From assembly GCA_964650945.1 (NCBI GenBank), contig CAZYXU010000003.1, positions 1,754 to 65,753 on the forward strand: a DNA stretch of 64,000 bases, read 5' to 3'. This document shows positions 319 to 44,754 of this stretch, piece by piece (the first letter of the stretch is position 1; each line of letters opens with the position of its first letter). The notes below the pieces were generated by a model, which did not search any database, had not been told where the DNA came from, and was given only the letters and a program-made list of their open reading frames with translations. Made by a program: the position numbers and the translations under genes. This stretch comes from an uncultured Verrucomicrobiota bacterium. GTDB lineage: Bacteria > Verrucomicrobiota > Kiritimatiellia > JAAZAB01.

Positions 319-373
319 TGAAAGAATCTCTGACTGCCGAACACTGAACACCGAACACTTTCCGGCAAGCGGC
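319..373. repeat. Short copy of the intergenic heptamer repeat family (…TCTGACTGCCGAACACTGAACACCGAACACT…)
   Basis: CCGAACACTGAACACCGAACACT is preceded by an AGAATCTCTGACT module. The same modules recur at 8800–9111, 11828–11960, 29300–29384, 35340–35410 and 40850–41160. Confidence 0.5.
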
Positions 374-3512: not shown

Positions 3513-3953
3513 TCAATGCGCGGACAGCCGGGCGAGTTCGGCGGAATCCAAAACCCCCACGCCGCCGTCGCGCAGGGCGTCCAGCGCAGCGTCCACATCC
3601 TCGAAGCGGAACACAATCACCGCCTTGTTGCCCCGGCCGAAGGCGAAGGCGTACATGTATTCGATGTTGATGCGGGCCTGGTCCAGCACCGCCACCACCT
3701 CCGCCAGCCCGCCCGGGCGGTCCGGCACTTCCAGGGCCAGCACTTCGGTCACCTTGACCACGCAACCGGCCTGCTCCAGCAAATCGCGCGCGCGCTCCCA
3801 TTCCCCGACCACCAGGCGCAGGATGCCGAACTGCTGGGTGTCGGCCAGGGCCATGGTAATGATATTTACCTTGGCGTCGGCCAGCGCCTTACAGGGGATG
3901 GAAAGTTGGCCGGGTTTGTTTTCCAGAAATACCGATAATTGCTTGATCTTCAT
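3513..3953 (-). CDS. ACT-domain protein (tandem ACT domains), the PaaK-associated type
   Basis: MKIKQLSVFLENKPGQL...EVLALEVPDRPGGLAEV shows two ACT-like beta-alpha-beta-beta-alpha-beta signatures. A strong RBS (AAAAGAGGGGG) sits 6 nt before ATG 3953. The gene lies between the two paaK paralogs. Confidence 0.75.
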   Translation of the reverse strand: MKIKQLSVFLENKPGQLSIPCKALADAKVNIITMALADTQQFGILRLVVGEWERARDLLEQAGCVVKVTEVLALEVPDRPGGLAEVVAVLDQARINIEYMYAFAFGRGNKAVIVFRFEDVDAALDALRDGGVGVLDSAELARLSAH

Positions 3954-8121: not shown

Positions 8122-8799
8122 ATGATGGTTATCCGTCCATATCAGTCCGCCGACCGCCCGGCGGTGCGCCGGATTTGTTGCGATACCGCGGATGCCGGCC
8201 GGCCGGTGGAAGCGTTTTTCAGCGATCGGGAACTGTTTGCCGACCTGCTGACGCGCTATTATACCGATTTTGAGCCGCAATCGCTGTGGGTGGCGGCGCC
8301 GGCCGGCCGGGCCGCCGGCTATCTGGCCGGAACCATGGATACGCGCCGGGCGCAGCGGATCATGGCGCGCCGGGTCTGGCCGGCGGCCGTCGGGCGGGCG
8401 CTATGCCGGGGCGCGCTGGGGAATGTTGCGCTCTGGCGTCTGGCATGGCGGAACCGGCGCCTGCACGCGGGGGCGCAACGGGCGGCGATCGTGGATTTGC
8501 AGGCATACCCGGCGCACCTGCATGTCAATCTTGACGCGGCGGCGCGCGGATGCGGGGCGGGCCGCCGCTTGTTGGCGGCGTTTGTTGACCAGGCGCGCGG
8601 CGCCGGCGTCCCCGGGCTGCATGCCTGGGTGCGGGCGGACAATGCCGCCGGCTTGCGGTTTTTCGCGGCCGCGGGCTTCCAGGAGCTGGGCCGCTGCCCG
8701 CTGCTGCGGCGGGAGGACGGGAATTTGTTGTATACGGTGGGGCTTGGTCTGGAGTTAACGGAACGGAATTATGCGTTGCTTTCAAAAGCCAGCTTTTGA
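8122..8799 (+). CDS. GNAT-family N-acetyltransferase
   Basis: An acetyl-CoA binding-like region HVNLDAAARGCGAGRRLLAAFVDQARGAG (R/Q-x-x-G-x-G/A motif) with overall GNAT topology. Confidence 0.7.
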   Translation: MMVIRPYQSADRPAVRRICCDTADAGRPVEAFFSDRELFADLLTRYYTDFEPQSLWVAAPAGRAAGYLAGTMDTRRAQRIMARRVWPAAVGRALCRGALGNVALWRLAWRNRRLHAGAQRAAIVDLQAYPAHLHVNLDAAARGCGAGRRLLAAFVDQARGAGVPGLHAWVRADNAAGLRFFAAAGFQELGRCPLLRREDGNLLYTVGLGLELTERNYALLSKASF

Positions 8800-9111
8800 A
8801 AGCAGTGTTCGGGGTTCAGTGTTCGGTGGAATAAAACTTTATGGAGTTATTCAAATTCTGACTCTTGAATTCCGGACTGTTGTAGCGCCACGGCGTGGCG
8901 CACTCCGGTTCCAACCGAGGCGAGCGCTGGCATAGCAAATGCCGAACGCCGTTCGGCTACTACATCCCGGAACATCCGCATTATTTTACCAATAGACTTT
9001 TGAAACTGGTTCGGTTTTTTATAAGGGCAAATTGCATGAATCGCGTTTTTAGAAGGTTTTAAGGTTTACGACTTTAAGGTTTTACGGCTGAACACCGAAC
9101 ACTGAACACTT
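8800..9111. repeat. MITE-like non-coding element. It has inverted terminal heptamer arrays (GTGTTCRG / CYGAACAC) flanked by a direct TTTGAAAG repeat, and two internal perfect palindromes
   Basis: Left end: TTTTGAAAG|CAGTGTTCGGGGTTCAGTGTTCGG. Right end: CTGAACACCGAACACTGAACACT|TTTGAAAG. Internal palindromes: GCGCCACGGCGTGGCGC and GCCGAACGCCGTTCGGC. No ORF with coding character. It contains the TTCAAATTCTGACTCTTGAATTCC module shared with the other copies. Confidence 0.55.
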
Positions 9112-10560
9112 TTGAAAGAGACTCTTATGCAAACGATTAAAAAAATTTACGGTTGCTTGCAGTCGCTCGCTTTCTGCCTATGCCTGGCTCAGGCCGGTTG
9201 CCTGGCGCCGCCAAGTCCGCCGCCGGCCGGGGCCGGGGAGGCGCTTGACGCCGCCAGCGCCGGCCGTCCGCCGGCGCCGTTGCTTTTGAATGATGACGAC
9301 CGCATCATGGTGCTGGCGCCGCACCCGGATGACGAGTCGCTGGCCGCCGGCGGGCTGATCCAGCAGGCCTTGGCGCGCAAGCTGCCGGTGAAGGTGGTCT
9401 TTTTCACTTATGGCGACAATAACGAATTGTCGTTCATGCTGTATCGCAAACGCCCCGTGGTGGCGCCGTCGGAAGTGCGGCGCATGGGCGAGGTGCGCCA
9501 TGCCGAGGCCCTGCGCGCCGCCGCCGTCCTGGGACTGGCGCCCGCCGACCTGGTTTTCCTGGGCTATCCCGATTTCGGCACGCTGGATATCTGGGAGCGG
9601 CACTGGGGAGATGCGCCGGCATTTTGCAGCATGCTCACCCGCGTGCGCGCCGTGAGTTATCCCGACGCTTTCCGGCCCGGCGCCGCCTATCGCGGCGAGG
9701 AGATTTTAAGGGATTTGGAAACGCTGCTGCGGGATTTCCGGCCGACGGCCCTGCTGGTATCGCACCCCGCGGATTTCAATCCCGACCACCGGGCGCTCTA
9801 CGCCTTCACCCGCGTGGCGCTTTGGAACCTGGCGCCGGAAATTCAGCCGCGGCTGCTGCCGTTCCTGGTGCATTTCAAACAATGGCCGGCCCCGCGCGGC
9901 TATCATCCGGATGAGGGCATGACCCCGCCGCCGGATTTGCTGGCGCCGATCCAGTGGCAGACGCTTCCGCTGCCCGCCGGCGTGGCGGCGGAAAAACGCC
10001 GCGCCTTGCAGGCGCATGCCTCCCAGTATGCCTACAGCGCCAAATTCCTGGATGCGTTCGCGCGCCGCAACGAAATCTTCGGCAACCTGCCGCCGGTGCG
10101 CCTGCGGCGCGCCGCCGCGCCGGCCAGCCTGGATGCGGACGTGTCCGCGGATGAAATCCCCGAGGTTTTGACCGGGGATGAACGCGCGGAATTTGTCGGC
10201 ATCGAAAAATATTCCGCCGCGATCAGCAACGGCACGCTGTGCCTGACGCTGGACTTCCGCCGCCCCCTGACCGGCGTGGTCCAGGCGTCGGTGTTTTGCT
10301 GCGGGTACCGCGCCGATACCCCGTTCGACCGGATGCCGAAAATCCAGGTGCGCATCGGCGCCACCCGGTCGGAGTGTTTGGATGGCGGCCGGCCCCTGCC
10401 GCGCGGGGCGGTGGCGATCGAACGCCACCTGCGCCGGCTGGAGGTGAAAATCCCGCTGGCGGTCGCCGGCAATCCCGACCGGGCGCTGGTCTGCGCCCGG
10501 ACCTACCTGGAAGAATTGCCGCTGGACTGGGCCGCCTGGCGGGTGCTGGAGTTTCAATGA
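9112..10560 (+). CDS. Lipoprotein-anchored PIG-L/LmbE-family N-acetylglucosaminyl deacetylase with a C-terminal extension of unknown function
   Basis: Lipobox LAQAGC after a signal peptide. IMVLAPHPDDESLAAGG is the PIG-L zinc-binding HPDDE signature. A ~250-aa C-terminal domain has no recognised motif. Confidence 0.75.
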   Translation: MKETLMQTIKKIYGCLQSLAFCLCLAQAGCLAPPSPPPAGAGEALDAASAGRPPAPLLLNDDDRIMVLAPHPDDESLAAGGLIQQALARKLPVKVVFFTYGDNNELSFMLYRKRPVVAPSEVRRMGEVRHAEALRAAAVLGLAPADLVFLGYPDFGTLDIWERHWGDAPAFCSMLTRVRAVSYPDAFRPGAAYRGEEILRDLETLLRDFRPTALLVSHPADFNPDHRALYAFTRVALWNLAPEIQPRLLPFLVHFKQWPAPRGYHPDEGMTPPPDLLAPIQWQTLPLPAGVAAEKRRALQAHASQYAYSAKFLDAFARRNEIFGNLPPVRLRRAAAPASLDADVSADEIPEVLTGDERAEFVGIEKYSAAISNGTLCLTLDFRRPLTGVVQASVFCCGYRADTPFDRMPKIQVRIGATRSECLDGGRPLPRGAVAIERHLRRLEVKIPLAVAGNPDRALVCARTYLEELPLDWAAWRVLEFQ

Positions 10561-11819
10561 TGCATGCGATTGTTCTCTCCATCGGCGACGAGTTGGTCCT
10601 GGGCCAGGTGGCGGATACCAATGCCGGCTGGCTCAGCGCCCGGCTCGCGGAATGCGGCATCATGACCGTCTGGCACCAGGCCGTGCCGGATGACCGGGCG
10701 GCCATCGCCGCCGCGCTGCGCCGCGCGGCGGATGCGGCCGAATTGATTATCGTTTCCGGCGGATTGGGGCCGACCCCGGACGACCTGACCCGCCCCGCCC
10801 TGGCGGATGCCCTCGGGGCGCCCCTGGAATTACATGCGCCGGCGCGGGAGCAAATCGAACGGTTCTTCCGCGACCGCGGCTGGGTCATGTCGGAATCCAA
10901 TTTGACGCAAGCTATGCTGCCGCGCGGCGCGGAATCGCTGCCCAATCCGGCCGGCACCGCCCCGGGCATCTGCGCGCGGCTGGGGCCGGCGGACGTGTTT
11001 GTCGTGCCCGGCGTGCCGCGTGAAATGCGCGCGCTGTTTAATTTGCATATTGCGCCGCGCCTGCGCGCGCAATCCGGCCGGGTAATTCTGACCGCCCGGT
11101 TGGACACCTTCGGGTTGGGCGAATCGAAGGTGGCGGATAAGCTCGGGGACTTGATGCGCCGCGGCCGCAACCCCCTGGTGGGCACGACGGTCGCGGACGG
11201 CATTGTCACCGTGCGCGTGCGTGCGGATTTTCCGGATGCGGAGGCGGCGCGCGCCGCGCTTGACCGGACGGTCCGGGATGCGCGCCAATGCCTGGGGCCG
11301 GCGGTCTTCAGCGACGGCACAGTCTCCCTGGCGGAGGTGGTCGGCGATCTTTTGCGCCGCCGGCAATGGCGGTTGGCCGCGGCGGAAAGCTGCACCGGCG
11401 GCTTGCTGGGAAAAATGCTGACCGATGCCCCCGGCGCCAGCGATTTTTACCTGGGCGGCTGGGTGGTTTACGATAATGCCATGAAAACCAGCCAGTTGGG
11501 CGTGCCGGAATCCATGCTGCAAACCGCGGGCGCCGTCAGCGAGGCGGTGGTGCGGCATCTGGCCGAGGCGGCGCTCCAACGCGCCGGGGCGGATTGCGCC
11601 CTGGCCGTTTCCGGGATCGCCGGACCGGCCGGCGGCACGCCGGACAAGCCGGTGGGCACGATCTGGATCGCGCTGGGCGAGCGCTGCGGCGGCCGGATTG
11701 TCACGCAGGCGGAACGCTGGCTCTGGCCGGGCGAGCGCGCGCTGGTGCGCGACCGCGCGGCCAAAGCCGCCTTGAATATGCTGCGCTTGCGCCTGCTGGA
11801 AACTTGTCCGCCGCCATGA
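10557..11819 (+). CDS. cinA: CinA-family protein (competence/damage-inducible; NMN deamidase PncC-like C-terminal domain plus MocF-like N-terminal domain)
   Basis: MMHAIVLSIGDELVLGQVADTNAGWL (MoCF-biosynthesis-like N-terminus) and a C-terminal CinA domain (AAAESCTGGLLG). Its start ATG overlaps the previous gene's stop (ATGA), which indicates translational coupling. Confidence 0.85.
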   Translation: MMHAIVLSIGDELVLGQVADTNAGWLSARLAECGIMTVWHQAVPDDRAAIAAALRRAADAAELIIVSGGLGPTPDDLTRPALADALGAPLELHAPAREQIERFFRDRGWVMSESNLTQAMLPRGAESLPNPAGTAPGICARLGPADVFVVPGVPREMRALFNLHIAPRLRAQSGRVILTARLDTFGLGESKVADKLGDLMRRGRNPLVGTTVADGIVTVRVRADFPDAEAARAALDRTVRDARQCLGPAVFSDGTVSLAEVVGDLLRRRQWRLAAAESCTGGLLGKMLTDAPGASDFYLGGWVVYDNAMKTSQLGVPESMLQTAGAVSEAVVRHLAEAALQRAGADCALAVSGIAGPAGGTPDKPVGTIWIALGERCGGRIVTQAERWLWPGERALVRDRAAKAALNMLRLRLLETCPPP

Positions 11820-11827
11820 ATTTTGTC

Positions 11828-11960
11828 TGCTGAGTCTCTTTCAAAAGTGTTCAGTGTTCAGTGTTCGGCACCAGAGATTTTATAGTAACGCAACACATTG
11901 ATCTTGGCCGTTTGCAATTATTTTGAATTCTGACTTCTGAATCCTGAATTCATTCAAAAC
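11828..11960. repeat. Partial copy of the intergenic repeat family (GAGTCTCTTTCAAAAG–(TGTTCAG)3–…–TTGAATTCTGACTTCTGAATCCTGAATTC)
   Basis: The 20-mer GAGTCTCTTTCAAAAGTGTT is the exact reverse complement of the right end of the 8800–9111 element (AACACTTTTGAAAGAGACTC). It also shares the GAATTCAGA module. Confidence 0.5.
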
Positions 11961-12017
11961 GTGAGTTTTGAAATATGCTCTGATGCATGCTTTGCGATTA
12001 TTTGGCAGGCGATCAAA

Positions 12018-15000
12018 ATGCACAATGCCAAGTGGATTGGTTCAATCGGGTTGGCAGCGGGTTTATGGCTGACGCTGGGCTCGGGCTTAAGCCGCGCCCA
12101 GGCGCTGGTCATCCCCGCCGCCGGGCTCCGCGCCGGGGGCAACCCGCCGGGGATGATCGGCGGCCCCGGAACGCCCATCGTCGGCTGGGAGGAAATCGCG
12201 GGCTTGCCGCTCGGCGAGCAATTTCTGGGGGCGGGAGTCTTGAGCGGCGCGGTCTATGCCGTGGGCGGGATGAATGCGACTTATTCCGCCCCGCTCTATA
12301 CCAACGTCTTCCGGTATGACGGCGCCGCCTGGACGCCGGCGCCGGCGCTCCCCGGCGCCGCTTATACCCTGGCCGTGGCATGCTACAGCAATGCGCTGTA
12401 TACCCTGGGCGGCTTTGCCGGCTCCGGCACCCGTACGAATGTTTACAAGTTCGATGGCGCCGGCTGGTCCGAGGTGGCGGGGTTGCCGGCCGGCCGGGGC
12501 GCCGGCGCGGCCGCGGTCTGGAATGACGCCTTGTATTATATCGGCGGCCGCAATACCGCCGGCGCCGCCCAGACGAATGTTTACCGCTATAACGGCGCAA
12601 CCTGGAGCCAGGTGCGCGGCCTGCCCGCCCCGCGCGGCTGCCTGACCGCCAATGTCTGGAATGGCGCGCTGTATGCCGTCGGGGGCAGTGATGCGACGAA
12701 CGTTTACCAATACGACGGCACGAACTGGACGGAAACGGCGGGCTTGCCGGTCATCATGGGCTATGCGGCTTCCGGCGTCCTGGACGACGGGCTCCATGTT
12801 TTCGGCGGGGAGAGCGGCGCCGGGCAGACCAATGTGTATCGGTTTGACGGCACGAACTGGACGGCGGTTCCCGGCCTGCCCACCGCGCGCTTTGGCGTGG
12901 GCGGCGCCGTCCTCAGCAACGTCTTGTATTCCATCGGCGGGTTCGTCAGCGGTGTCTCCACCAATGTGTACCGCTCCGTGCTGACCGATTACCTGGGCGT
13001 GACGCCGTCCAACGGCGCCATGGCCGGCGGGTATGAAGTCGTGATCACCGGGACCAACCTCTCCGATGGCGCCGATGTCACCAATGTCACATTGTGCGGC
13101 GTCACCGCCGCGGTTGCCCGGGTGCATGGCGGCACCCAGATCGTGGCGATCGCCGGCGCCGGCCCGCCCGGTTTGGGCGACGTGCGCGTGTTTTCCGCAA
13201 GTTTTGGAGAATCGGTCCGCACCAATGCTTTTACATATATGGGCGCGGACATGCTCTGCCTGGGAACCAATGGCGCGGCTATCCCGAATGCGGCGCACGC
13301 CGCGGCGGAGAATGGGACGGATTTCGGCGAGCTGCCCTGGGGCGGCGCCCGCACGAATTATCTGGTGATCACTAACTCCGGCAACCAGGATTTGACGATC
13401 AACGGGATCGGCGTGCATGGCGCCGGGGCCGCTGCGTTCAAGGTTGTGTCGCCGCCGGCGCTGGTGCCGCCCGGCGGCGCATCGAATTTCGCGGCGGTGT
13501 TCGCGCCGCCCGGTCCGGGTGCGTATCCGGCAGCCTTCGGCATCGCCAATAATTCATCCAATCCCTTGTATGTGATCTACCTGGCGGGCGTAGGTGTAAA
13601 ACGTACGCAGACGTTATCGTTTTCAGCGGCAGATCACCTGGCGGTCACGGCTTCCGTGGCGTTGACGGCTTCGGCTTCATCCGGGTTGCCGGTAAGTTTT
13701 TCGGCGATGCCCCCCGGACGCATCACGGGCGGCAATATCCTCTCTTTCAACGGGACGGGCCAGGTGACTGTCGCGGCGGCGCAGGCCGGCAATGTCGATT
13801 GGCACGCCGCCGCGGCAACGCAAACAGTCCGGGTGACGCAGTATGGCCCATCCGCCGGCCGGCTGGCGGTGGAATTAACGCCGGCCGGCGGATCATGGAC
13901 CATGGTCAGCGCGCCGGCCGCGTATGTCGGGCCCTGGTCGGGAATCGGGCGCCTGGCTGCCATCCCGGCGCCGCCGGGCGGCTACCGCGTCGCCTGGGGC
14001 GCCCTGGCCGGTTATGCGCCGCCCCTGCCGCATTCCGGCGAACTGGCGCCGGGCAGCGCGTTGGTGTTCACGGGAATATACTTGCAGGTTACGGATGATC
14101 TGGCGCCGCCGCCGGGCGTGTCGGCGACGGCCGGAGTCTATACGAATTTGGTGCGGGTTTCCTGGCAGGGCGTGCCTGGCGCCGCGATTTATGAAATACG
14201 CCGCCACACCGCGAACGATCCGGCCCGCTCAAGCTGGCTGGCGGAAGTGCCGGCGGGCGCCGGAGCGCAAGCTGATGATCCCACGCCTGCAACTTATGCT
14301 TACGATGACTACGACGTTTTGCCCAACGTTTCCAGCTACTACTGGGTGCGGGCGAAAACGGCGGCGCGCATCAGCCGGTTCAGCCGGGCCGGCATGGGCT
14401 ATGCCCGGTTGGACCCCGGCGCCATGCAGGGCGTTTCAGACCTGGCGGCGGACGACCTGGTGTTTCTGCCGGTGAATCTCCAGCCCGATTCCGCCGCCGG
14501 CACAGTGTCGTTCCGACTGGCCAATTACGGGCCGGATGCCGTGAACGGCGCGGCGGTAGCGCTGGATTTCTACATGGGCGCGGCCGGCGGGGAGCTGCTG
14601 TGGATGGGCGGGGATCGCCGGAATTTCACGCTGGCGTCCGGCGCGGAAGAGTTGGTGGTGCTGGCCGCCGCCGCCCGGGGCGGCATAATCGCGCGCGGCG
14701 ATCTGCCGCATGATTCCCCGTTAACCGTGCGCGTGCGGGTGCGCCACCTGACCGCCCGGCGCGATCCCAATCCGCTGAATGACACGGCCGCCGCCGCCGG
14801 AACGGCGCGCATCCGCGCGGCCGGCGCGAGTTCCAGAGGACGCGGATTGACGGATTACGACGGCGACGGCAAGTCGGATTTGGCGGTGCTGAGCGCCGAT
14901 CGCAGCTTGTTCGTCTTCCTGGCGACCGGCGACCGGTTTGCGCAGATGCATTGGGAGGCTGGAGCCGCAGGCCCCGGTTTGTATCATGCGGCTCCCGGCG

Positions 15001-29300: not shown

Positions 29301-29384
29301 ACACCGGAACCAATTTCAAAACTCGCGTTTTAAAGGAATTCAGAATTCAGGCGTCAGAATTCAGAATAAAACGGAGCGATATAA
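29300..29384. repeat. Copy of the GAATTCAGAAT module of the intergenic repeat family (GAATTCAGAATTCAGGCGTCAGAATTCAGAAT)
   Basis: It is the reverse complement of the TTGAATTCTGACTTCTGAATCCTGAATTC module at 11925–11955 and 8850–8880. It is preceded by TTTCAAAAC. Confidence 0.4.
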
Positions 29385-35339: not shown

Positions 35340-35410
35340 GATCGTTATCCTGCCTGTTGAATTCTGCCCCCGAATACTGCCCCCCGCGAACACTGACCAC
35401 CGAACACTCC
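35340..35410. repeat. Degenerate copy of the intergenic repeat family (TTGAATTCTGCC…CGAACACTGACCACCGAACACT)
   Basis: Both modules are present between two reverse-strand genes. Confidence 0.4.
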
Positions 35411-39736: not shown

Positions 39737-40054
39737 AATGTATAATTCATCCTTTTAATGTTTTCAACATGCCGGCGGCAGTTTATAATGTCTTCCATGC
39801 AAACGCAAAACAAAATCATCGGCCGGCCCCGCCGGCCACGGCTGCGTCATGCTTGCGGCTCACCAGGGACGGTTCGCCCCACCAAAGGCAAATATGGCCA
39901 AAATGGTGGGGCGAGGCGCCCCGGCCGAGCCGTCTTTTCCGAGTTTGACGCAGCCCTGCCGCGCCGGCCGGCGGCGTGCCATGCCGCGCGTCTCTACACC
40001 GCCCCGACCACGGCGCTCCTGTGCCAGACATTGCTGGCGGCGGAAAACACCGCC

Positions 40055-40825
40055 GTGACCCTGCCGTCCAAGGGCGCGCGCTGGGCGCGCCTGACGGTGT
40101 TTTGCCCGTCGCCCGCGGCGGCGCGCCGGCTGGCGGCCCGGCTGCGCGGCTGGCTGGACGGCCTGCCGGGACCGGCCGGGCGCGTGCAGTGCGTCCGCCT
40201 GCCGGCGGCCGATTGGCGGGAAAACTGGAAACGCTTTTTTCCGGCGCGCCGGGTGTCGCCGCGGCTGGTGGTCCGGCCGCCCTGGCGCAGTTTTCCGGCG
40301 CGGCCGGGCGATTGTGTGATCGAATTGAATCCGGGCTTGAGTTTCGGCACCGGCCTGCATCCCACGACGCGCGGCTGTCTGCGCCTGCTGGACGAATTTG
40401 ACGCCGCCGCGCCGGGCGGCTCTTTTCTGGATATCGGCTGCGGATCGGGCATCCTGGCGATTGCCGCCGCGCGCCTGGGTTGCCGGCCGGTGCTGGCGCT
40501 GGATCATGACCCGCAGGCCGTGCGCGCCGCCCGGCAAAACCGCCAGGCCAACGGGCTGGACCGCCGGATTGTCATCCGGCGGGCCGATGTCCGGCGGTTG
40601 GACAACTTCCCGGCCTGCGATCTGGTGGCCGCCAACCTGCTGGCGGGATTGCTGATTGAAGCCGCCCCGCAAATCAGCCGCCTGGCGGCGCGGCATTTGA
40701 TTGTTGCCGGGATTTTACGCCCGCAATACGCCGCGGTGCGCCGCGCCTACCAGCGGCAGGGATTCCGCGAAATCCGCGCCATCCCCGATGGCGAATGGCA
40801 GACCGGCGGATTCGTCCGCCGGTAG
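40055..40825 (+). CDS. prmA: Ribosomal protein L11 methyltransferase PrmA (short, Thermus-like form)
   Basis: DWRENWKRFF (the conserved W-x-x-x-W motif), ELNPGLSFGTGLHPTTRGCL and FLDIGCGSGILAIAA (SAM motif I). The start is uncertain. GTG 40055 gives 256 aa. The track ORF from 39758 begins with an Arg-rich, non-coding-like N-terminus. Confidence 0.65.
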   Translation: MTLPSKGARWARLTVFCPSPAAARRLAARLRGWLDGLPGPAGRVQCVRLPAADWRENWKRFFPARRVSPRLVVRPPWRSFPARPGDCVIELNPGLSFGTGLHPTTRGCLRLLDEFDAAAPGGSFLDIGCGSGILAIAAARLGCRPVLALDHDPQAVRAARQNRQANGLDRRIVIRRADVRRLDNFPACDLVAANLLAGLLIEAAPQISRLAARHLIVAGILRPQYAAVRRAYQRQGFREIRAIPDGEWQTGGFVRR

Positions 40826-40849
40826 GGGAAATTTGTTTTGCGCCAGGCC

Positions 40850-41160
40850 GGCAAAAATGACATAATTACCGAACCCCGAACCACCGAACCACTGAACCCC
40901 GAACCACCGAACCACTGAACCCCGAACCACCGAACCACTGAACCCCGAACCACCGAACCACTGAACCCTGAACCACGAACCACTGAACCCTGAACCCTGA
41001 ACCCCGAACCCCGAACACCGAACCCCGAACCCCGAACCACCGAACCCCGAACCACTGAACCACCGAACCCCTAAAACCGAACCCCGAACACCGAACACTG
41101 AACACCGAACACTGAACCCCGAACACTGAACCCCGAACCCCGAACCACCGAACACTGAAC
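40850..41160. repeat. ~310-bp degenerate microsatellite of ~39 tandem CYGAACM(C) heptamer/octamer units (VNTR-like)
   Basis: Read directly: ccgaaccccgaaccaccgaaccactgaaccccgaacc…gaacactgaacacg. Same unit as the TIR heptamers of the 8800–9111 element. It lies between prmA and mlaE. Confidence 0.9.
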
Positions 41161-41188
41161 ACGTTGTCGAGAGATTGGATTAAGACGC

Positions 41189-42331
41189 ATGCCTGCATCA
41201 GGGCCCAATCCGGATATGATTGACTGCCGGCGCATGCCGGACGGGACGCTGGCGGTGCGGCTCGCCGGCCCTTGGTTATGCGCGGCCGGCCTGCCGGCCG
41301 TCGAACCCGTCCGCCGGGCGCTGGCGGCGGGCGGCGCGCGGCGGGTGGTTTTGGATGGCGCGGCCATCGCCAGGTGGGATAGCGCCCTGCTGGTTTTTAC
41401 GCGCGCGGTGATCGGGCTCGGCCGGATGGCGGGCGCGCCCGTGGAAATCCAAAATATGCCCCGGGGCGCCGCGGAACTGCTGCGCCTCGCGGAGGCCGTG
41501 CCCGCCGGCGCCGGCTTGCGCCCGGGGCCGGAACGCGTTGCCTGGCTGGCGCGGGTGGGGCAATCGGCCGTCCGGTTTTGGACTGACAGCCGGGCGACCC
41601 TGGCCTTTCTGGGCGAATCGGTGATGGTTTTTGGACGGCTGCTGCGCGGGCGCATCCGGTGGCGGCGCCGGGATTTCTGGGTGGTGGTCCAGGATTGCGG
41701 GCCGGCGGCGCTGCCGATTGTCACGGTCATCAGCCTGCTGGTCGGCACCATCCTGGCTTTCCTGGGCGCGCTGCAACTCAAGCTGTTTGGCGCCGAAATT
41801 TACATCGCCGACCTGGTGGGCGTGGGCATGGTGCGCGAAATGGGCTCGCTGATGACGGGCATCATCATGGCCGGCCGCACCGGGGCCGCCTTTGCCGCGC
41901 ATCTGGGCACGATGCAGGTCAACGAGGAGATTGACGCGCTGCGGACCATGGGGTTTGATCCGATGGAATTTCTGGTGCTGCCGCGGGAATTGGCGCTGAT
42001 CCTGATGATGCCGCTGCTGGCGACTTACGCGAATTTCGTCGGCATCCTCGGCGGGGCGCTGGCGGGGGTGCTGCTGTTTGACCTGACTTTTGCGCAGTAT
42101 TACACGCAGACGGTTAACGCCGTGACCATCCCGGCCGTGGCGTCGGGCGTGATCAAGAGCTCCGTCTATGGCGTCCTGATCGCCTTTTCAGGCTGCATGC
42201 AAGGCATGTTTTGCGGCCGCAGCGCCTCCGCCGTGGGCGCGGCGACGACGGCGGCGGTGGTCAATGCGATCGTTTACATCATTGTGGCCGACGCGGTGAT
42301 TTCCGTGATCTACACCCTGGTGGGATTTTAA
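41189..42331 (+). CDS. mlaE: MlaE-family ABC transporter permease with an N-terminal STAS (anti-sigma-antagonist-like) domain
   Basis: The N-terminal ~110 aa is STAS-like (VVLDGAAIARWDSALLVF). The C-terminal has MlaE/YrbE permease TM helices and the EIDALRTMG motif. Confidence 0.8.
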   Translation: MPASGPNPDMIDCRRMPDGTLAVRLAGPWLCAAGLPAVEPVRRALAAGGARRVVLDGAAIARWDSALLVFTRAVIGLGRMAGAPVEIQNMPRGAAELLRLAEAVPAGAGLRPGPERVAWLARVGQSAVRFWTDSRATLAFLGESVMVFGRLLRGRIRWRRRDFWVVVQDCGPAALPIVTVISLLVGTILAFLGALQLKLFGAEIYIADLVGVGMVREMGSLMTGIIMAGRTGAAFAAHLGTMQVNEEIDALRTMGFDPMEFLVLPRELALILMMPLLATYANFVGILGGALAGVLLFDLTFAQYYTQTVNAVTIPAVASGVIKSSVYGVLIAFSGCMQGMFCGRSASAVGAATTAAVVNAIVYIIVADAVISVIYTLVGF

Positions 42332-42332
42332 C

Positions 42333-43091
42333 ATGGGCGACGCCGGCATTCAGATTGAAGTGCAGGGGCTGACGATGGCCTACGGCAGCCGGGTAATCCA
42401 GCGCGGCATGGATTTCACCGTCAAGCGGGGCGAGGTGTTCGTGGTCATGGGCGGCAGCGGCTGCGGCAAAAGCACCCTGCTGCGCCATATGGTGGGATTG
42501 CAGCCGCCGGCCGCCGGCCGGATTTTATACGACGGCGCCAGTTTCTGGGATGCGGATGAAGCGCAGCGCAGCGCCATCCTGCGCCGGATCGGCATCCTCT
42601 ACCAGGGCGGCGCGTTGTGGAGTTCGCTGACCCTGGCCGAGAATATCGCCGTGCCGCTGGAAGCCTATACCCGGCTGACCCCGGCGCAAATCCGCGAACT
42701 CGCCGCGTACAAACTGGCGCTGGTGGGGCTGGCCGGATTTGAAGATTATTACCCGTCGGAAATCAGCGGCGGCATGCGCAAACGCGCCGGCCTGGCGCGC
42801 GCCATGGCCCTGGACCCCGAAATCCTGTTTTGCGACGAGCCTTCGGCCGGGCTCGACCCGGTCAGCGCGCGGCTGCTGGACGATCTGATCCTGGAGTTGC
42901 GCGCGAGCCTGGGCGCGACCTTCGTGGTGGTGACGCACGAACTGGCCAGCATTTTCGCCATCGGCGGCGACGGCGTATTTTTGGACGCGGAGACCATGTC
43001 AATCATCGCCCGGGGCGCGCCGCGCGTCCTGCTGGATTCCTGCCCGGAAGCCAAGGTGCAGAAATTCCTGCGCCGGGGACCGGCGGCGTGA
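42333..43091 (+). CDS. mlaF: MlaF-type ABC transporter ATP-binding protein
   Basis: Walker A GGSGCGKST, ABC signature ISGGMRKRAGLARAMA, and Walker B ILFCDEPSAGLD. Confidence 0.85.
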   Translation: MGDAGIQIEVQGLTMAYGSRVIQRGMDFTVKRGEVFVVMGGSGCGKSTLLRHMVGLQPPAAGRILYDGASFWDADEAQRSAILRRIGILYQGGALWSSLTLAENIAVPLEAYTRLTPAQIRELAAYKLALVGLAGFEDYYPSEISGGMRKRAGLARAMALDPEILFCDEPSAGLDPVSARLLDDLILELRASLGATFVVVTHELASIFAIGGDGVFLDAETMSIIARGAPRVLLDSCPEAKVQKFLRRGPAA

Positions 43092-43119: not shown

Positions 43120-44073
43120 ATGATCAAGCAACCCAACCCGGCCCTTATCGGCGCTTTTGTGCTGGGGGCGGCGGCGCTGGCGGTCATCGGGCTGCTGCTT
43201 TTCGGCGGCGGCCGGTTTTTCGACCAGACGTTCGATTGCGTCATGTATTTCGACGAAACCATTGACGGCCTGGAGGCCGGCGCGCCGGTGGATTTTCAGG
43301 GCGTGCGCATCGGCACGGTCAAGGAAGTGCGGCTGGTCTTCGACCTCGGCCGGGAAAGCCGGGTGAACCGCCCCGTGATCATGCGCATCGAGAATAGCCG
43401 GATCACCACCACCGGCGACCGCCAGGGGTTGCCGGCGGAAGCGGTGCTGGAACACCTGGTGCGGGAATCCGGGCTGCGCGCGCAACTGGCCATGCAAAGC
43501 ATCCTGACCGGCAAATTGAAGGTCGAACTGGGGTTTCATCCCGGCACGCCCGTGGCGCGGAAGGCCTTGCATCCCTCCGTCTGGGAGATGCCGACGATCG
43601 TGTCGCCGCTGCAGCGCCTCAGCGATGAAGTGGCGCGGATGCCGCTGGCCGACATCGTTTCCGAGACCCACAAGATCATCAAGGGCCTGGCCGAGATTGT
43701 CAACTCGACGGATACCCGGAATACCATGCGCAATCTTAACGACACCCTGGCCAAGCTGCAAACCGTGCTCGGCCGGATGGATGATGAAATCGGGCCGCTG
43801 TTCCAGAAATCCGGCGGCGCCATGGATGCGGCCGGCGCCTCGTTGCGCTCCATGCAGACGGTGCTGGGCAAGCTGGAACAGCAGCTTGATCCGTTGTTGC
43901 AGTCGCTGCAGGCCTCCGCGGACAATGCCAACCGCCTGCTGGACGACCAGTCGCCGTGGCGGTATGAAATGCAGCGCCTGGCCAGGGAATTGTCCGAGAC
44001 CAGCCGGTCGGTGCGCTGGCTGGCCGACTACCTGGAACGGCATCCCGAGGCTTTGTTGCGCGGCAAGCATTAA
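43120..44073 (+). CDS. mlaD: MlaD/MCE-domain protein
   Basis: N-terminal TM, then MCE domain (GLEAGAPVDFQGVRIGTVKEVRL), then a long C-terminal helical region. Confidence 0.8.
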   Translation: MIKQPNPALIGAFVLGAAALAVIGLLLFGGGRFFDQTFDCVMYFDETIDGLEAGAPVDFQGVRIGTVKEVRLVFDLGRESRVNRPVIMRIENSRITTTGDRQGLPAEAVLEHLVRESGLRAQLAMQSILTGKLKVELGFHPGTPVARKALHPSVWEMPTIVSPLQRLSDEVARMPLADIVSETHKIIKGLAEIVNSTDTRNTMRNLNDTLAKLQTVLGRMDDEIGPLFQKSGGAMDAAGASLRSMQTVLGKLEQQLDPLLQSLQASADNANRLLDDQSPWRYEMQRLARELSETSRSVRWLADYLERHPEALLRGKH

Positions 44074-44115: not shown

Positions 44116-44754
44116 ATGCTGATTTCGAACGTTACACGCTGGCTGCCGTCCGCCTTCATGGCGGCCGGATGCGTCTGGCTTGCCGGTTGCGCCACCAGCC
44201 GCGAGCCGCAATATTTTTTGCTGTCAGACGGCGCCCCGCCGCCCGCTGCCGGCGTCATGCATTTGCCGGAGCCGGCGCGCGTCATCCAGCTTTCGCCCAT
44301 CCGGCTGCCGGCCTATCTCGATCGGCCCCAGATTGTCACCCGGCCGGCGCCATGGCAGATTCAAACCAGCGATTTCCACCGGTGGGGGATGCCGCTCGAC
44401 GGCGCGGTGACGGATCTCCTGGCCGCCGTGCTGGCGGGAGCATTGCCCGCGGCGGCGGTGGCAACCGCGCCGCCGCCCGCCGCCCCGCCCGCCGGCCGCC
44501 GCCCCGCGGCCTGCCGGGTGCGGGTGGAGATTGACCGCCTGGACGGCGCCCTGGGCGGCGAGGTTGTCCTGGCGGCGCGCTGGACGGTGACGGCGGAACC
44601 GGGGGCGCCGGGGGCTGAGGCGCCGGCGCTGCGGCGCGCGGCGCATTGCCGCCAGCCGACGTCCGGCCCGGGTTATGACGCCTACGTCCAGGCCATCGGT
44701 GCGGCGGTGGCGCGGTTGGGCCAAGAGCTTGCCGCCAGTCTCAGTGAGCCTTAA
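44116..44754 (+). CDS. ABC-transport auxiliary lipoprotein (PqiC/YmbA-like, DUF330)
   Basis: Lipobox LAGC. Its position directly after mlaEFD is typical of PqiC-like components. Its sequence is Pro/Ala-rich with low motif content. Confidence 0.55.
   Translation: MLISNVTRWLPSAFMAAGCVWLAGCATSREPQYFLLSDGAPPPAAGVMHLPEPARVIQLSPIRLPAYLDRPQIVTRPAPWQIQTSDFHRWGMPLDGAVTDLLAAVLAGALPAAAVATAPPPAAPPAGRRPAACRVRVEIDRLDGALGGEVVLAARWTVTAEPGAPGAEAPALRRAAHCRQPTSGPGYDAYVQAIGAAVARLGQELAASLSEP

Follow-up and report, generated by a model that had tools for sequence, protein, structure and literature searches.

An intergenic tandem array between prmA and the mla operon of an uncultured Kiritimatiellia bacterium is, on balance, best explained as a recently hyper-expanded, strand-specific leader repeat, and mla expression is expected to fall with its length. 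The array was found in a stretch of 64,000 nt (the window, to which all positions refer), where it occupies positions 40869-41160 of the plus strand with its units arranged head-to-tail. The size of 292 bp rests on one complete array from a metagenome-assembled contig and could be collapsed or mis-sized. The original prediction had been an array of about 310 bp starting at 40850, but the 19 bp at the left turned out not to be repetitive.

Splitting the array on GAAC yielded 39 phased units, in agreement with the roughly 39 degenerate units that had been predicted. The description as a heptamer array was only partly right. It fits 24 of the units and the period of 7 reported by Tandem Repeats Finder (40869-41153, 38.9 copies, consensus CCGAACC, score 299), but 13 octamers are mixed in. 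The units are GAACCCC (13 copies), GAACCACC (7 copies), GAACCACT (6 copies), GAACACT (4 copies), GAACCCT and GAACACC (3 copies each), and a few odd ones. The same program also reported a period of 23 (40871-41160, 13.2 copies, score 368). This higher-order unit consists of GAACCCC, GAACCACC, and GAACCACT (7 + 8 + 8 bp), and four perfect copies of it occupy the first 92 bp (40871-40962, plus strand). These four copies are the youngest part of the array. The composition of the plus strand is 47% C, 35% A, 13% G, and 5% T. The three-unit GAAC pattern GAACNNNGAACNNNGAAC has 19 matches in the window, compared with 0.01 expected by chance, and 0.01 matches were expected in shuffles for a looser, GAAY-phased regular expression of the array. 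The array is a real, non-random tandem repeat of 7- and 8-nt units.

Other kinds of elements were considered and rejected. A CRISPR array would contain spacers, and there are none. Only a single CCCCTAAAACC unit speaks for a telomere-like repeat, and the array lies within a syntenic locus. A MITE or an insertion sequence does not fit either, as the array is built purely from direct repeats and has no inverted termini. A DNA search of a plasmid collection revealed nothing similar to the array. Literature searches with the repeat sequence itself and for tandem repeats in Kiritimatiellota yielded no bacterial report of the former and nothing on the latter.

Both neighbouring genes are located on the plus strand, with the end of prmA at 40825 and the start of mlaE at 41189, exactly as had been proposed. 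The start of prmA (39797-40825; L11 methyltransferase, PF06325) was placed by comparison with relatives, and 43 nt (40826-40868) lie between its stop codon and the array. The first operon gene after the array, mlaE (41189-42331), encodes an MlaE permease (PF02405) with a fused STAS-like N-terminus. It is followed on the same strand by the genes for the MlaF ATPase (42333-43091), MlaD (43120-44073), and an ABC_trans_aux/PqiC-like lipoprotein (44116-44754). The suggested STAS::mlaEFD-pqiC operon was recovered with respect to MlaE, MlaF, MlaD, and ABC_trans_aux, whereas the STAS part corresponds to a weak precomputed hit in relatives. The closest named PrmA homologue is 77% identical and stems from Kiritimatiellia, and MlaE shares about 60% identity with proteins of Kiritimatiellae MAGs. 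The mlaE start at 41189 was preferred over a later start in the public annotation because conservation in relatives extends over the first 15 residues and over the 15 bp that precede the ATG. The end of the array is separated from this ATG by 28 nt. The respective segment, GTTGTCGAGAGATTGGATTAAGACGC (41161-41188, plus strand), is also found conserved in array-free relatives and presumably serves as the native translation initiation region of mlaE.

Comparison with relatives gave information about the age and the origin of the array. In L085 (a 611-kb contig of GCA_040767085.1), L087, and L083/L084, which have about 80% identical coding DNA, both flanks are kept and no repeat is present. The intergenic spacer of these relatives is 84-111 bp long, and their conserved flanks are TTTTGCGCC...GGCAAAAATGACATRAT on the left side and GGATTAAGRCGYATG on the right side. 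A contig from another sample, L086 (SRR27370453), encodes an MlaE that is 97% identical, and the array is present at its mlaE junction. This contig starts inside the array with ACTGAACACCGAACACTGAACACTGAACAC, which is followed by TTTGTCGAGAGAGTGGATTAAGACGCATG. A contig break at such a position is typical of a long repeat. The last four units are GAACCCC GAACCCC GAACCACC GAACACT in the window and ACT GAACACC GAACACT GAACACT in L086. As two assemblies contain the array, it is no artefact of a single one, and its presence in both strains indicates that it predates their split.

The search for further strains was less productive. An exact-protein look-up of the window MlaE, in its 380-aa and 365-aa forms, and of MlaF yielded no match, and the sole contigs of the exact strain (L081, L082) end inside prmA, short of the array. 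None of the GTDB species representatives is close to the window MlaE; a GTDB scan with this protein gave a best identity of 63% and the repeat in none of 80 loci. A search for PrmA homologues revealed no further strain above 81% identity, and the next relative, with a 77% identical PrmA, has no mla operon at the corresponding position.

The array is thus a young, lineage-specific expansion, which is in line with the proposed runaway expansion of a smaller module, as three relatives of about 80% identity have the same flanks without an array. Recent growth by slippage or unequal exchange is suggested by the perfect 23-bp copies, the mixture of 7- and 8-bp units, and the absence from relatives. 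The four perfect copies are compatible with the notion of a slippage-prone array as well as with unequal exchange.

A promoter-like block is located between prmA and the array (40838-40866, plus strand). It comprises TTGCGC (40838-40843) and CATAAT (40861-40866), which are separated by a 17-nt spacer, and a TG at 40858-40859. The block TTGCGC-17-TGaCATAAT is conserved together with mla in relatives, and the array begins 2 bp after it. It is also kept in L083/L084, in which the upstream DNA is not prmA. Because the block travels with mla, it is unlikely to be a terminator of prmA, and its conservation suggests that it is an extended -10-like promoter. Its -35 element matches three of six consensus positions and is below the sigma-70 threshold of the consensus promoter scan, which called no promoter in the region 40600-41400. 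The same scan found no terminator-like site between prmA and the array. A TATAAT box similar to the block at the array side precedes prmA, which indicates that sigma-70-like -10 boxes occur in this organism. The array should be transcribed in sense on the mla mRNA, either from the block or by read-through from prmA. As it is located downstream of the -10-like box, a change in array length would alter the length of the leader, not the spacing of the promoter.

The properties of the array RNA are unusual for the window. The sense RNA has a minimum free energy of -3.9 kcal/mol over 292 nt. The mean for 318 other 292-nt segments from both strands of the window is -124.6 kcal/mol (standard deviation 17.6), and the least stable of them has -73.2 kcal/mol. 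The array RNA together with the initiation region folds with -11.8 kcal/mol and a nearly empty centroid, and this weak folding is explained by the composition (z = 0.11). When 340-600 nt of G-rich flank were included, the pairing probability was 0.29-0.31 inside the array compared with 0.65 outside. The array contains the 78-nt windows with the highest difference between C and G of the whole 64 kb (C 0.49-0.51, G 0.12-0.13), and its YC-dinucleotide density is 0.253, compared with 0.141 for the plus strand of the window. The sense strand contains no ATG, GTG, or TTG and 14 stop codons that are distributed over all three frames. The array RNA is therefore predicted to act as a single-stranded spacer without translational activity, with the native initiation region next to the start codon preserved.

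On the antisense strand, 21 start codons and a single stop codon were counted. The antisense RNA has a folding energy of -79 kcal/mol and folds better than shuffled sequences (z = -3.0). One canonical four-tract G-quadruplex motif is present on the minus strand (40988-41012), and the total number of such motifs in the 64 kb is four. Three minus-strand ORFs of 102-146 aa with GSGF/VRGS repeats cross the array, and none of them has a Pfam match at E<=0.1. These spurious ORFs result from the presence of start codons and the near absence of stop codons on the antisense strand. Spurious repeat ORFs had been postulated for both strands, but they are confined to the minus strand, as the plus strand is closed by stop codons in all three frames. 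An Rfam search of the region 40500-41500 gave nothing above threshold, and in the whole window only two tRNAs were detected.

The window contains five short GAACACY-type arrays in addition to the long one. A short sister element at 9087-9124 (plus strand) consists of three GAACACY units (9088-9110) and CTTTTGAAAGAGACTC. It ends 2 nt before the ATG of a PIG-L deacetylase gene (9127), and its units end 16 nt before it. The element is one arm of a 38-nt inverted repeat. The second arm, 95% complementary, is found at 11832-11869 on the minus strand, with units at 11846-11866, just past the stop codon of cinA (11819). The array GAACACT GAACCCC GAACACT (8803-8828, minus strand) is located just past the stop codon of a GNAT acetyltransferase gene, and GAACACT GAACACC GAACACT (339-359, plus strand) faces the stop codon of a minus-strand gene. 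Between two minus-strand genes, at 35350-35410 (plus strand), the unit recurs in the degenerate forms GAATTCTG..., GAATACTG..., and GAACACTGACCACCGAACAC, with the array copy at 35388-35407. Only one other stretch of the window is more C-rich and G-poor. Inverted units are indeed present at 8803-8828 and 9088-9110, so that the long array shares its unit with the termini of an element at 8800-9111, as had been noticed before. A CTTTTGAAAG motif is attached to several of the heptamer arrays in the window. Of the six arrays, the copy at 9088-9110 and the long array point at a nearby start codon, and the remaining four are directed at the stop codon of a convergent gene. Other heptamers form short GAATTCA/GAATTCT arrays at 11920-11951 and 29336-29367, and relatives carry the further units CGACACT, TTCAACA, CAATCCA, and GAATTCA/CGCCAAGA. 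These additional arrays in the window and in relatives indicate that short intergenic arrays of 7-8-bp units are a habit of the lineage.

The heptamer is not confined to this lineage. An exact search with GAACACYGAACACYGAACAC retrieved at least 120 metagenome contigs and 44 viral contigs, and among these listed matches the loci have unrelated flanks and GC contents between 0.30 and 0.75. Matches at contig ends that have CCCTGAA or CCCTAAA units may in part be eukaryotic telomere-like DNA. After the removal of duplicates, the matches listed comprised 165 arrays, 104 of which have at least 450 nt on both sides. Among these 104, a forward ORF of at least 100 aa starts within 120 nt downstream in 65 cases and within 35 nt in 43 cases, whereas the reverse orientation was found in 28 and 8 cases, respectively. 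With stricter ORF definitions, the same 104 listed arrays include 34 with a same-strand start within 35 nt downstream and 12 with such a start at 36-120 nt. A convergent stop codon is faced within 60 nt by 21 of them, a divergent start lies within 120 nt of 8, and a same-strand stop lies within 60 nt upstream of 30.

Many arrays among the matches listed reach to 1-9 nt from the ATG, and a Shine-Dalgarno-like 4-mer was found in 10 of the 53 that are closely followed by an ORF start. No enrichment of -10-like boxes over the control flank was observed upstream of the listed metagenome arrays, and therefore we do not claim that arrays generally begin at transcription starts. The arrays listed are typically 20-48 bp long and the longest has 265 bp, so that the 292-bp array of the window is at the extreme of the size distribution of the family.

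The closest known counterpart is the TAACTGA direct repeat of marine Beggiatoaceae, Cyanobacteria, and Bacteroidetes (MacGregor 2015, PMC4679880), of which 169 sets were found in one Beggiatoaceae genome. Most of these repeats are oriented forward and precede, by a few to some tens of nt, start codons that usually have no Shine-Dalgarno motif. No RNA structure is predicted for them, and all forward frames are interrupted by stop codons. The copy number rises to 43 in some Bacteroidetes and Cyanobacteria, the intergenic regions of close relatives are shorter and repeat-free, and contigs end inside the arrays (PMC4679880). The similarities are extensive, and of the features described for the TAACTGA repeats only the unit sequence does not recur here. 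Both systems consist of intergenic heptamer direct repeats at many loci of a genome (here six arrays in 64 kb), and the mla array is likewise in forward orientation 28 nt before an ATG, free of structure, and stopped in all sense frames. It shares with the TAACTGA repeats the great length, the existence of relatives without an array, and a contig that is broken inside the repeat (L086), and a ...CTGA core is common to both (ACACTGA versus TAACTGA). In contrast, the present unit, CYGAACM(M), is C-rich and has octamers mixed in (GAACCCC, GAACCACY, GAACACY), and the host belongs to the high-GC Kiritimatiellia (PVC), which are absent from MacGregor's study. In addition, most of the short copies in the window face stop codons instead of start codons, and the mla array stops 28 nt short of the ATG, with the native initiation region preserved. 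By analogy, the mla array would work like the TAACTGA class, but by its sequence it does not belong to this class.

The one heptamer repeat of a 5'-UTR that is known to have been dissected by experiment is (ATCTTTC)n upstream of hmw1A and hmw2A of H. influenzae, for which more units lead to lower expression (PMC12721329). These repeats pair with a G-rich region, and the resulting long hairpin is cut by RNase III (PMC12721329). They are the best experimental model for the tuning of expression by such an array, as the mla array, too, would be a heptamer SSR of a 5'-UTR, between a putative promoter (the promoter-like block) and the start codon. However, the mla array is structure-free and lacks a pairing partner, so that a hairpin of the hmw type cannot form, and the present organism is not a host-adapted pathogen.

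A further comparison concerns the general class of long simple sequence repeats (LSSRs). According to Mrázek et al. 2007, as far as their work is quoted in PMC4679880, heptanucleotides are the most abundant LSSR unit in prokaryotes, and slippage was proposed as their origin. The array agrees with this class, as represented there, in having tandem units of 5-11 nt beyond chance expectation, in its non-coding position, in the sporadic distribution over lineages, and in the presumed polymerase slippage. LSSR is a descriptive category, however, and in the part quoted it does not predict the strand bias and the start codon proximity of the present heptamer family.

Resemblances can also be seen at the level of RNA composition and of genome organization. 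Rut sites in long bacterial 5'-UTRs mediate Rho-dependent attenuation. The mla array resembles them, in composition only, in being an untranslated, unstructured, C-rich, and G-poor RNA of at least 80 nt with dense YC dinucleotides. Natural rut sites are not tandem repeats, which is a difference from the mla array. The cyanobacterial STRR heptamers CCCCAGT, TTGGTCA, and CAACAGT were reportedly described by Mazel and coworkers in 1990. As in the present lineage, several different heptamers form tandem intergenic repeats within one lineage, but the sequences and the phylum differ.

We propose the following scenario for the mla locus. Short three-unit CYGAACM(M) repeats would populate the intergenic regions of this Kiritimatiellia genome as well as those of many bacteria and phages, and short arrays of this class may provide an open leader for Shine-Dalgarno-independent initiation. 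In the short mla leader, such an array would have grown by replication slippage or unequal exchange in registers of 7/8 bp and 23 bp. The resulting 292-nt array would add a long untranslated, YC-rich stretch with the compositional hallmarks of a rut site. A longer array would then lead to lower mla expression, and the favoured route is premature Rho-dependent termination, because about 290 nt of the RNA are untranslated, YC-rich, and G-poor, which is an argument from composition. The locus could thereby act as a heritable, length-tunable attenuator. The tolerance of the array in its present orientation would be due to the lack of structure and of start codons, the closure of all frames, and the intact initiation region. 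It is not required for mla function, since three relatives do without it. A role as a leader cannot explain every copy of the repeat, since four of the six arrays in the window face convergent stop codons. A much wider version of this scenario is rather doubtful in our estimation: CYGAACM, TAACTGA, and other ...CTGA heptamers might all be widespread strand-specific, cis-acting RNA leaders that recruit ribosomes, or a conserved protein that binds single-stranded RNA (for example S1 or a Csp), without a Shine-Dalgarno motif, with the mla array among them as a heritable, length-tunable attenuator of lipid transport at the outer membrane of Kiritimatiellia. Such a leader class would span phyla with GC contents from 30% to 75% as well as phages.

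The main rival of a length-dependent leader repeat is a neutral runaway microsatellite, i.e., a slippage seed that expanded in a dispensable leader without a meaningful effect on mla. We regard this as a serious possibility, albeit the less probable of the two. It would account for the absence of the array from three close relatives with conserved flanks, for the degenerate units with their mixture of 7 and 8 bp, and for the extreme size in comparison with the 20-48 bp that are typical among the matches listed. The translational inertness would explain tolerance without any function, and heptamers are the commonest unit of prokaryotic long SSRs in the account of Mrázek et al. 2007 that is given in PMC4679880. 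What shifts the balance is the expectation, derived from knowledge of Rho and of 5'-UTR length, that the addition of 292 nt of C-rich RNA to a leader of about 50 nt would hardly be neutral for expression. A neutral microsatellite would also leave the orientation bias of the family toward start codons (43 versus 8 among the matches listed) without an explanation.

The remaining explanations are less likely than a neutral by-product. An element that acts at the DNA level is improbable, be it a platform for a sequence-specific DNA-binding protein or non-B DNA, with a G-quadruplex on the minus strand and an i-motif on the plus strand, that would hinder transcription or replication and render the site fragile. 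One of the four G4 motifs of the 64 kb lies within the array (40988-41012, minus strand), the antisense strand folds better than shuffles (z = -3.0), and the units are regularly spaced. However, this is a single motif in 292 bp, most units (GAACCACC, GAACACT) have no G3 or C3 tracts, no candidate binding protein was identified, and the orientation bias of the family relative to the coding direction points to a constraint at the level of RNA or translation. The position upstream of an envelope-related operon and the fact that short tandem units are the usual substrate of phase variation (PMC4679880, PMC12721329) would be compatible with a contingency locus, in which the unit number shifts the distance between promoter elements, or that between an activator site and the promoter, and thereby switches mla on and off. 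This is very improbable, as the sole conserved promoter-like block is located wholly upstream of the array (its -10 box ends at 40866) and the 28 bp between array and ATG are too short for a promoter plus leader. Mixed units of 7 and 8 bp and a size of 292 bp are also unsuited to fine spacing, and for this environmental organism no host-driven selection is known. Even less credit can be given to an assembly artefact or to a part of a repetitive minus-strand protein with GSGF/VRGS repeats, although the source is a metagenome-assembled contig and three ORFs of 102-146 aa run through the array. The independent L086 assembly (SRR27370453) contains the same array-mlaE junction, and synteny with relatives is preserved on both sides. 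As to the ORFs, none matches Pfam at E<=0.1, they overlap the conserved end of prmA or the start of mlaE, and their existence is solely due to the lack of stop codons on the antisense strand.

The mla array belongs to a known kind of element, of which it is an extreme example in a new lineage and with a different unit. For this uncultured PVC bacterium, the array provides a strain marker that evolves fast, a site at which short-read assemblies are likely to break, and a plausible cis-modifier of an envelope lipid-transport operon. For the heptamer family, the most interesting by-product is the distribution of GAACACY across metagenomes and phages, which is directed toward start codons: among the matches listed, the arrays point toward a nearby start codon about five times more often than away from it. 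This start-directed family extends the little-followed TAACTGA observation of 2015, and it suggests that heptamer leaders free of structure and of start codons are a general feature of genes without a Shine-Dalgarno motif.

The original prediction had placed an element with inverted termini of the CYGAACM heptamer at 8800-9111. Heptamer triplets in inverted orientation are indeed located at both of its ends, and the region (8775-9111) is composite. It also includes a perfect hairpin of 13 bp (TGCTTTCAAAAGC/GCTTTTGAAAGCA) where a GNAT acetyltransferase gene ends, GAATTC-type heptamers, the palindrome GCCGAACGCCGTTCGGC, and four octamers AAGGTTTT at 9053-9084.

A 38-nt inverted repeat (GCTGAACACCGAACACTGAACACTTTTGAAAGAGACTC), the arms of which are located at 9087-9124 and 11832-11869 and are 95% complementary, encloses a two-gene unit, in which a gene for a PIG-L deacetylase (9127-10560) is followed by cinA, which ends at 11819. 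Transcription of both arms could allow the mRNA to base-pair between its 5′- and 3′-ends, across the initiation region. Another possibility is that the arms are markers of a mobile or invertible segment of 2.7 kb.

A second composite structure, an intergenic module of about 160 bp at 11831-11988, is built from GAATTCW heptamers, a hairpin (TTCAAAAC-GTGA-GTTTTGAA), a spacer, GAACACY heptamers, and CTTTTGAAAGAGACTC. It is 87% identical to positions 49-214 of locus L159 (metagenome contig Ga0172380_10145617), where the gene context differs from that in the window, and an incomplete copy is present at 29312-29367. The module has the behavior of an intergenic cassette that is dispersed or mobile. 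Degenerate versions of the CYGAACM heptamer (GAATTCTGCCCCC, GAATACTGCCCCCC, and GAACACTGACCACCGAACAC) were also found at 35350-35410, the window's second-ranking stretch for C-rich, G-poor composition. This stretch lies between two minus-strand genes, and the degenerate units are oriented in reverse to both of them.

At about 39853-39980, the prmA gene itself carries about 126 nt (42 amino acids) of inserted, in-frame sequence that relatives lack. Direct repeats resembling CGCCGGCC border the insertion, which harbors a hairpin with a 10-bp stem (CGCCCCACCA...TGGTGGGGCG). Two short-read contigs of the same strain (L081 and L082) terminate within the insertion, at 39865-39881, suggesting that the strain is heterogeneous or that a small element has been inserted. 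Downstream of prmA, the gene order varies. In the window and in the relative L085, the mla operon and the adjoining PAS histidine kinase gene are located between prmA and an ExbD/ExbB/TPR cluster. In another Kiritimatiellia relative (L252-L255, PrmA 77% identical), they are missing and the cluster follows prmA directly, so that the mla block looks like an insertion or rearrangement within the genus.

On the viral contig L228 (IMG/VR 3300027730_000053), (GAACGCY)n and (GAACACY)n units are mixed in an array longer than 200 bp (minus-strand offsets 2723-2931, plus-strand matches at about 10726-10864). A second, separate array of four units on this contig ends 6 nt before an ATG. Long arrays of the GAACACY heptamer family are thus present in phage genomes as well.

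In relatives, other units of 7-8 bp (CGACACT, TTCAACA, CAATCCA, CACGAAGG, CTTGGTGG, and CGCCAAGA) form short arrays between genes. Such arrays are located at 3688-3742 and 6328-6348 of L083, at 107-130 and 281-303 of L084, and at 12463-12487 and 16230-16256 of L252. Several families of repeat units thus exist side by side in this Kiritimatiellia lineage, similarly to the cyanobacterial STRR repeats, for which several unit families also coexist.
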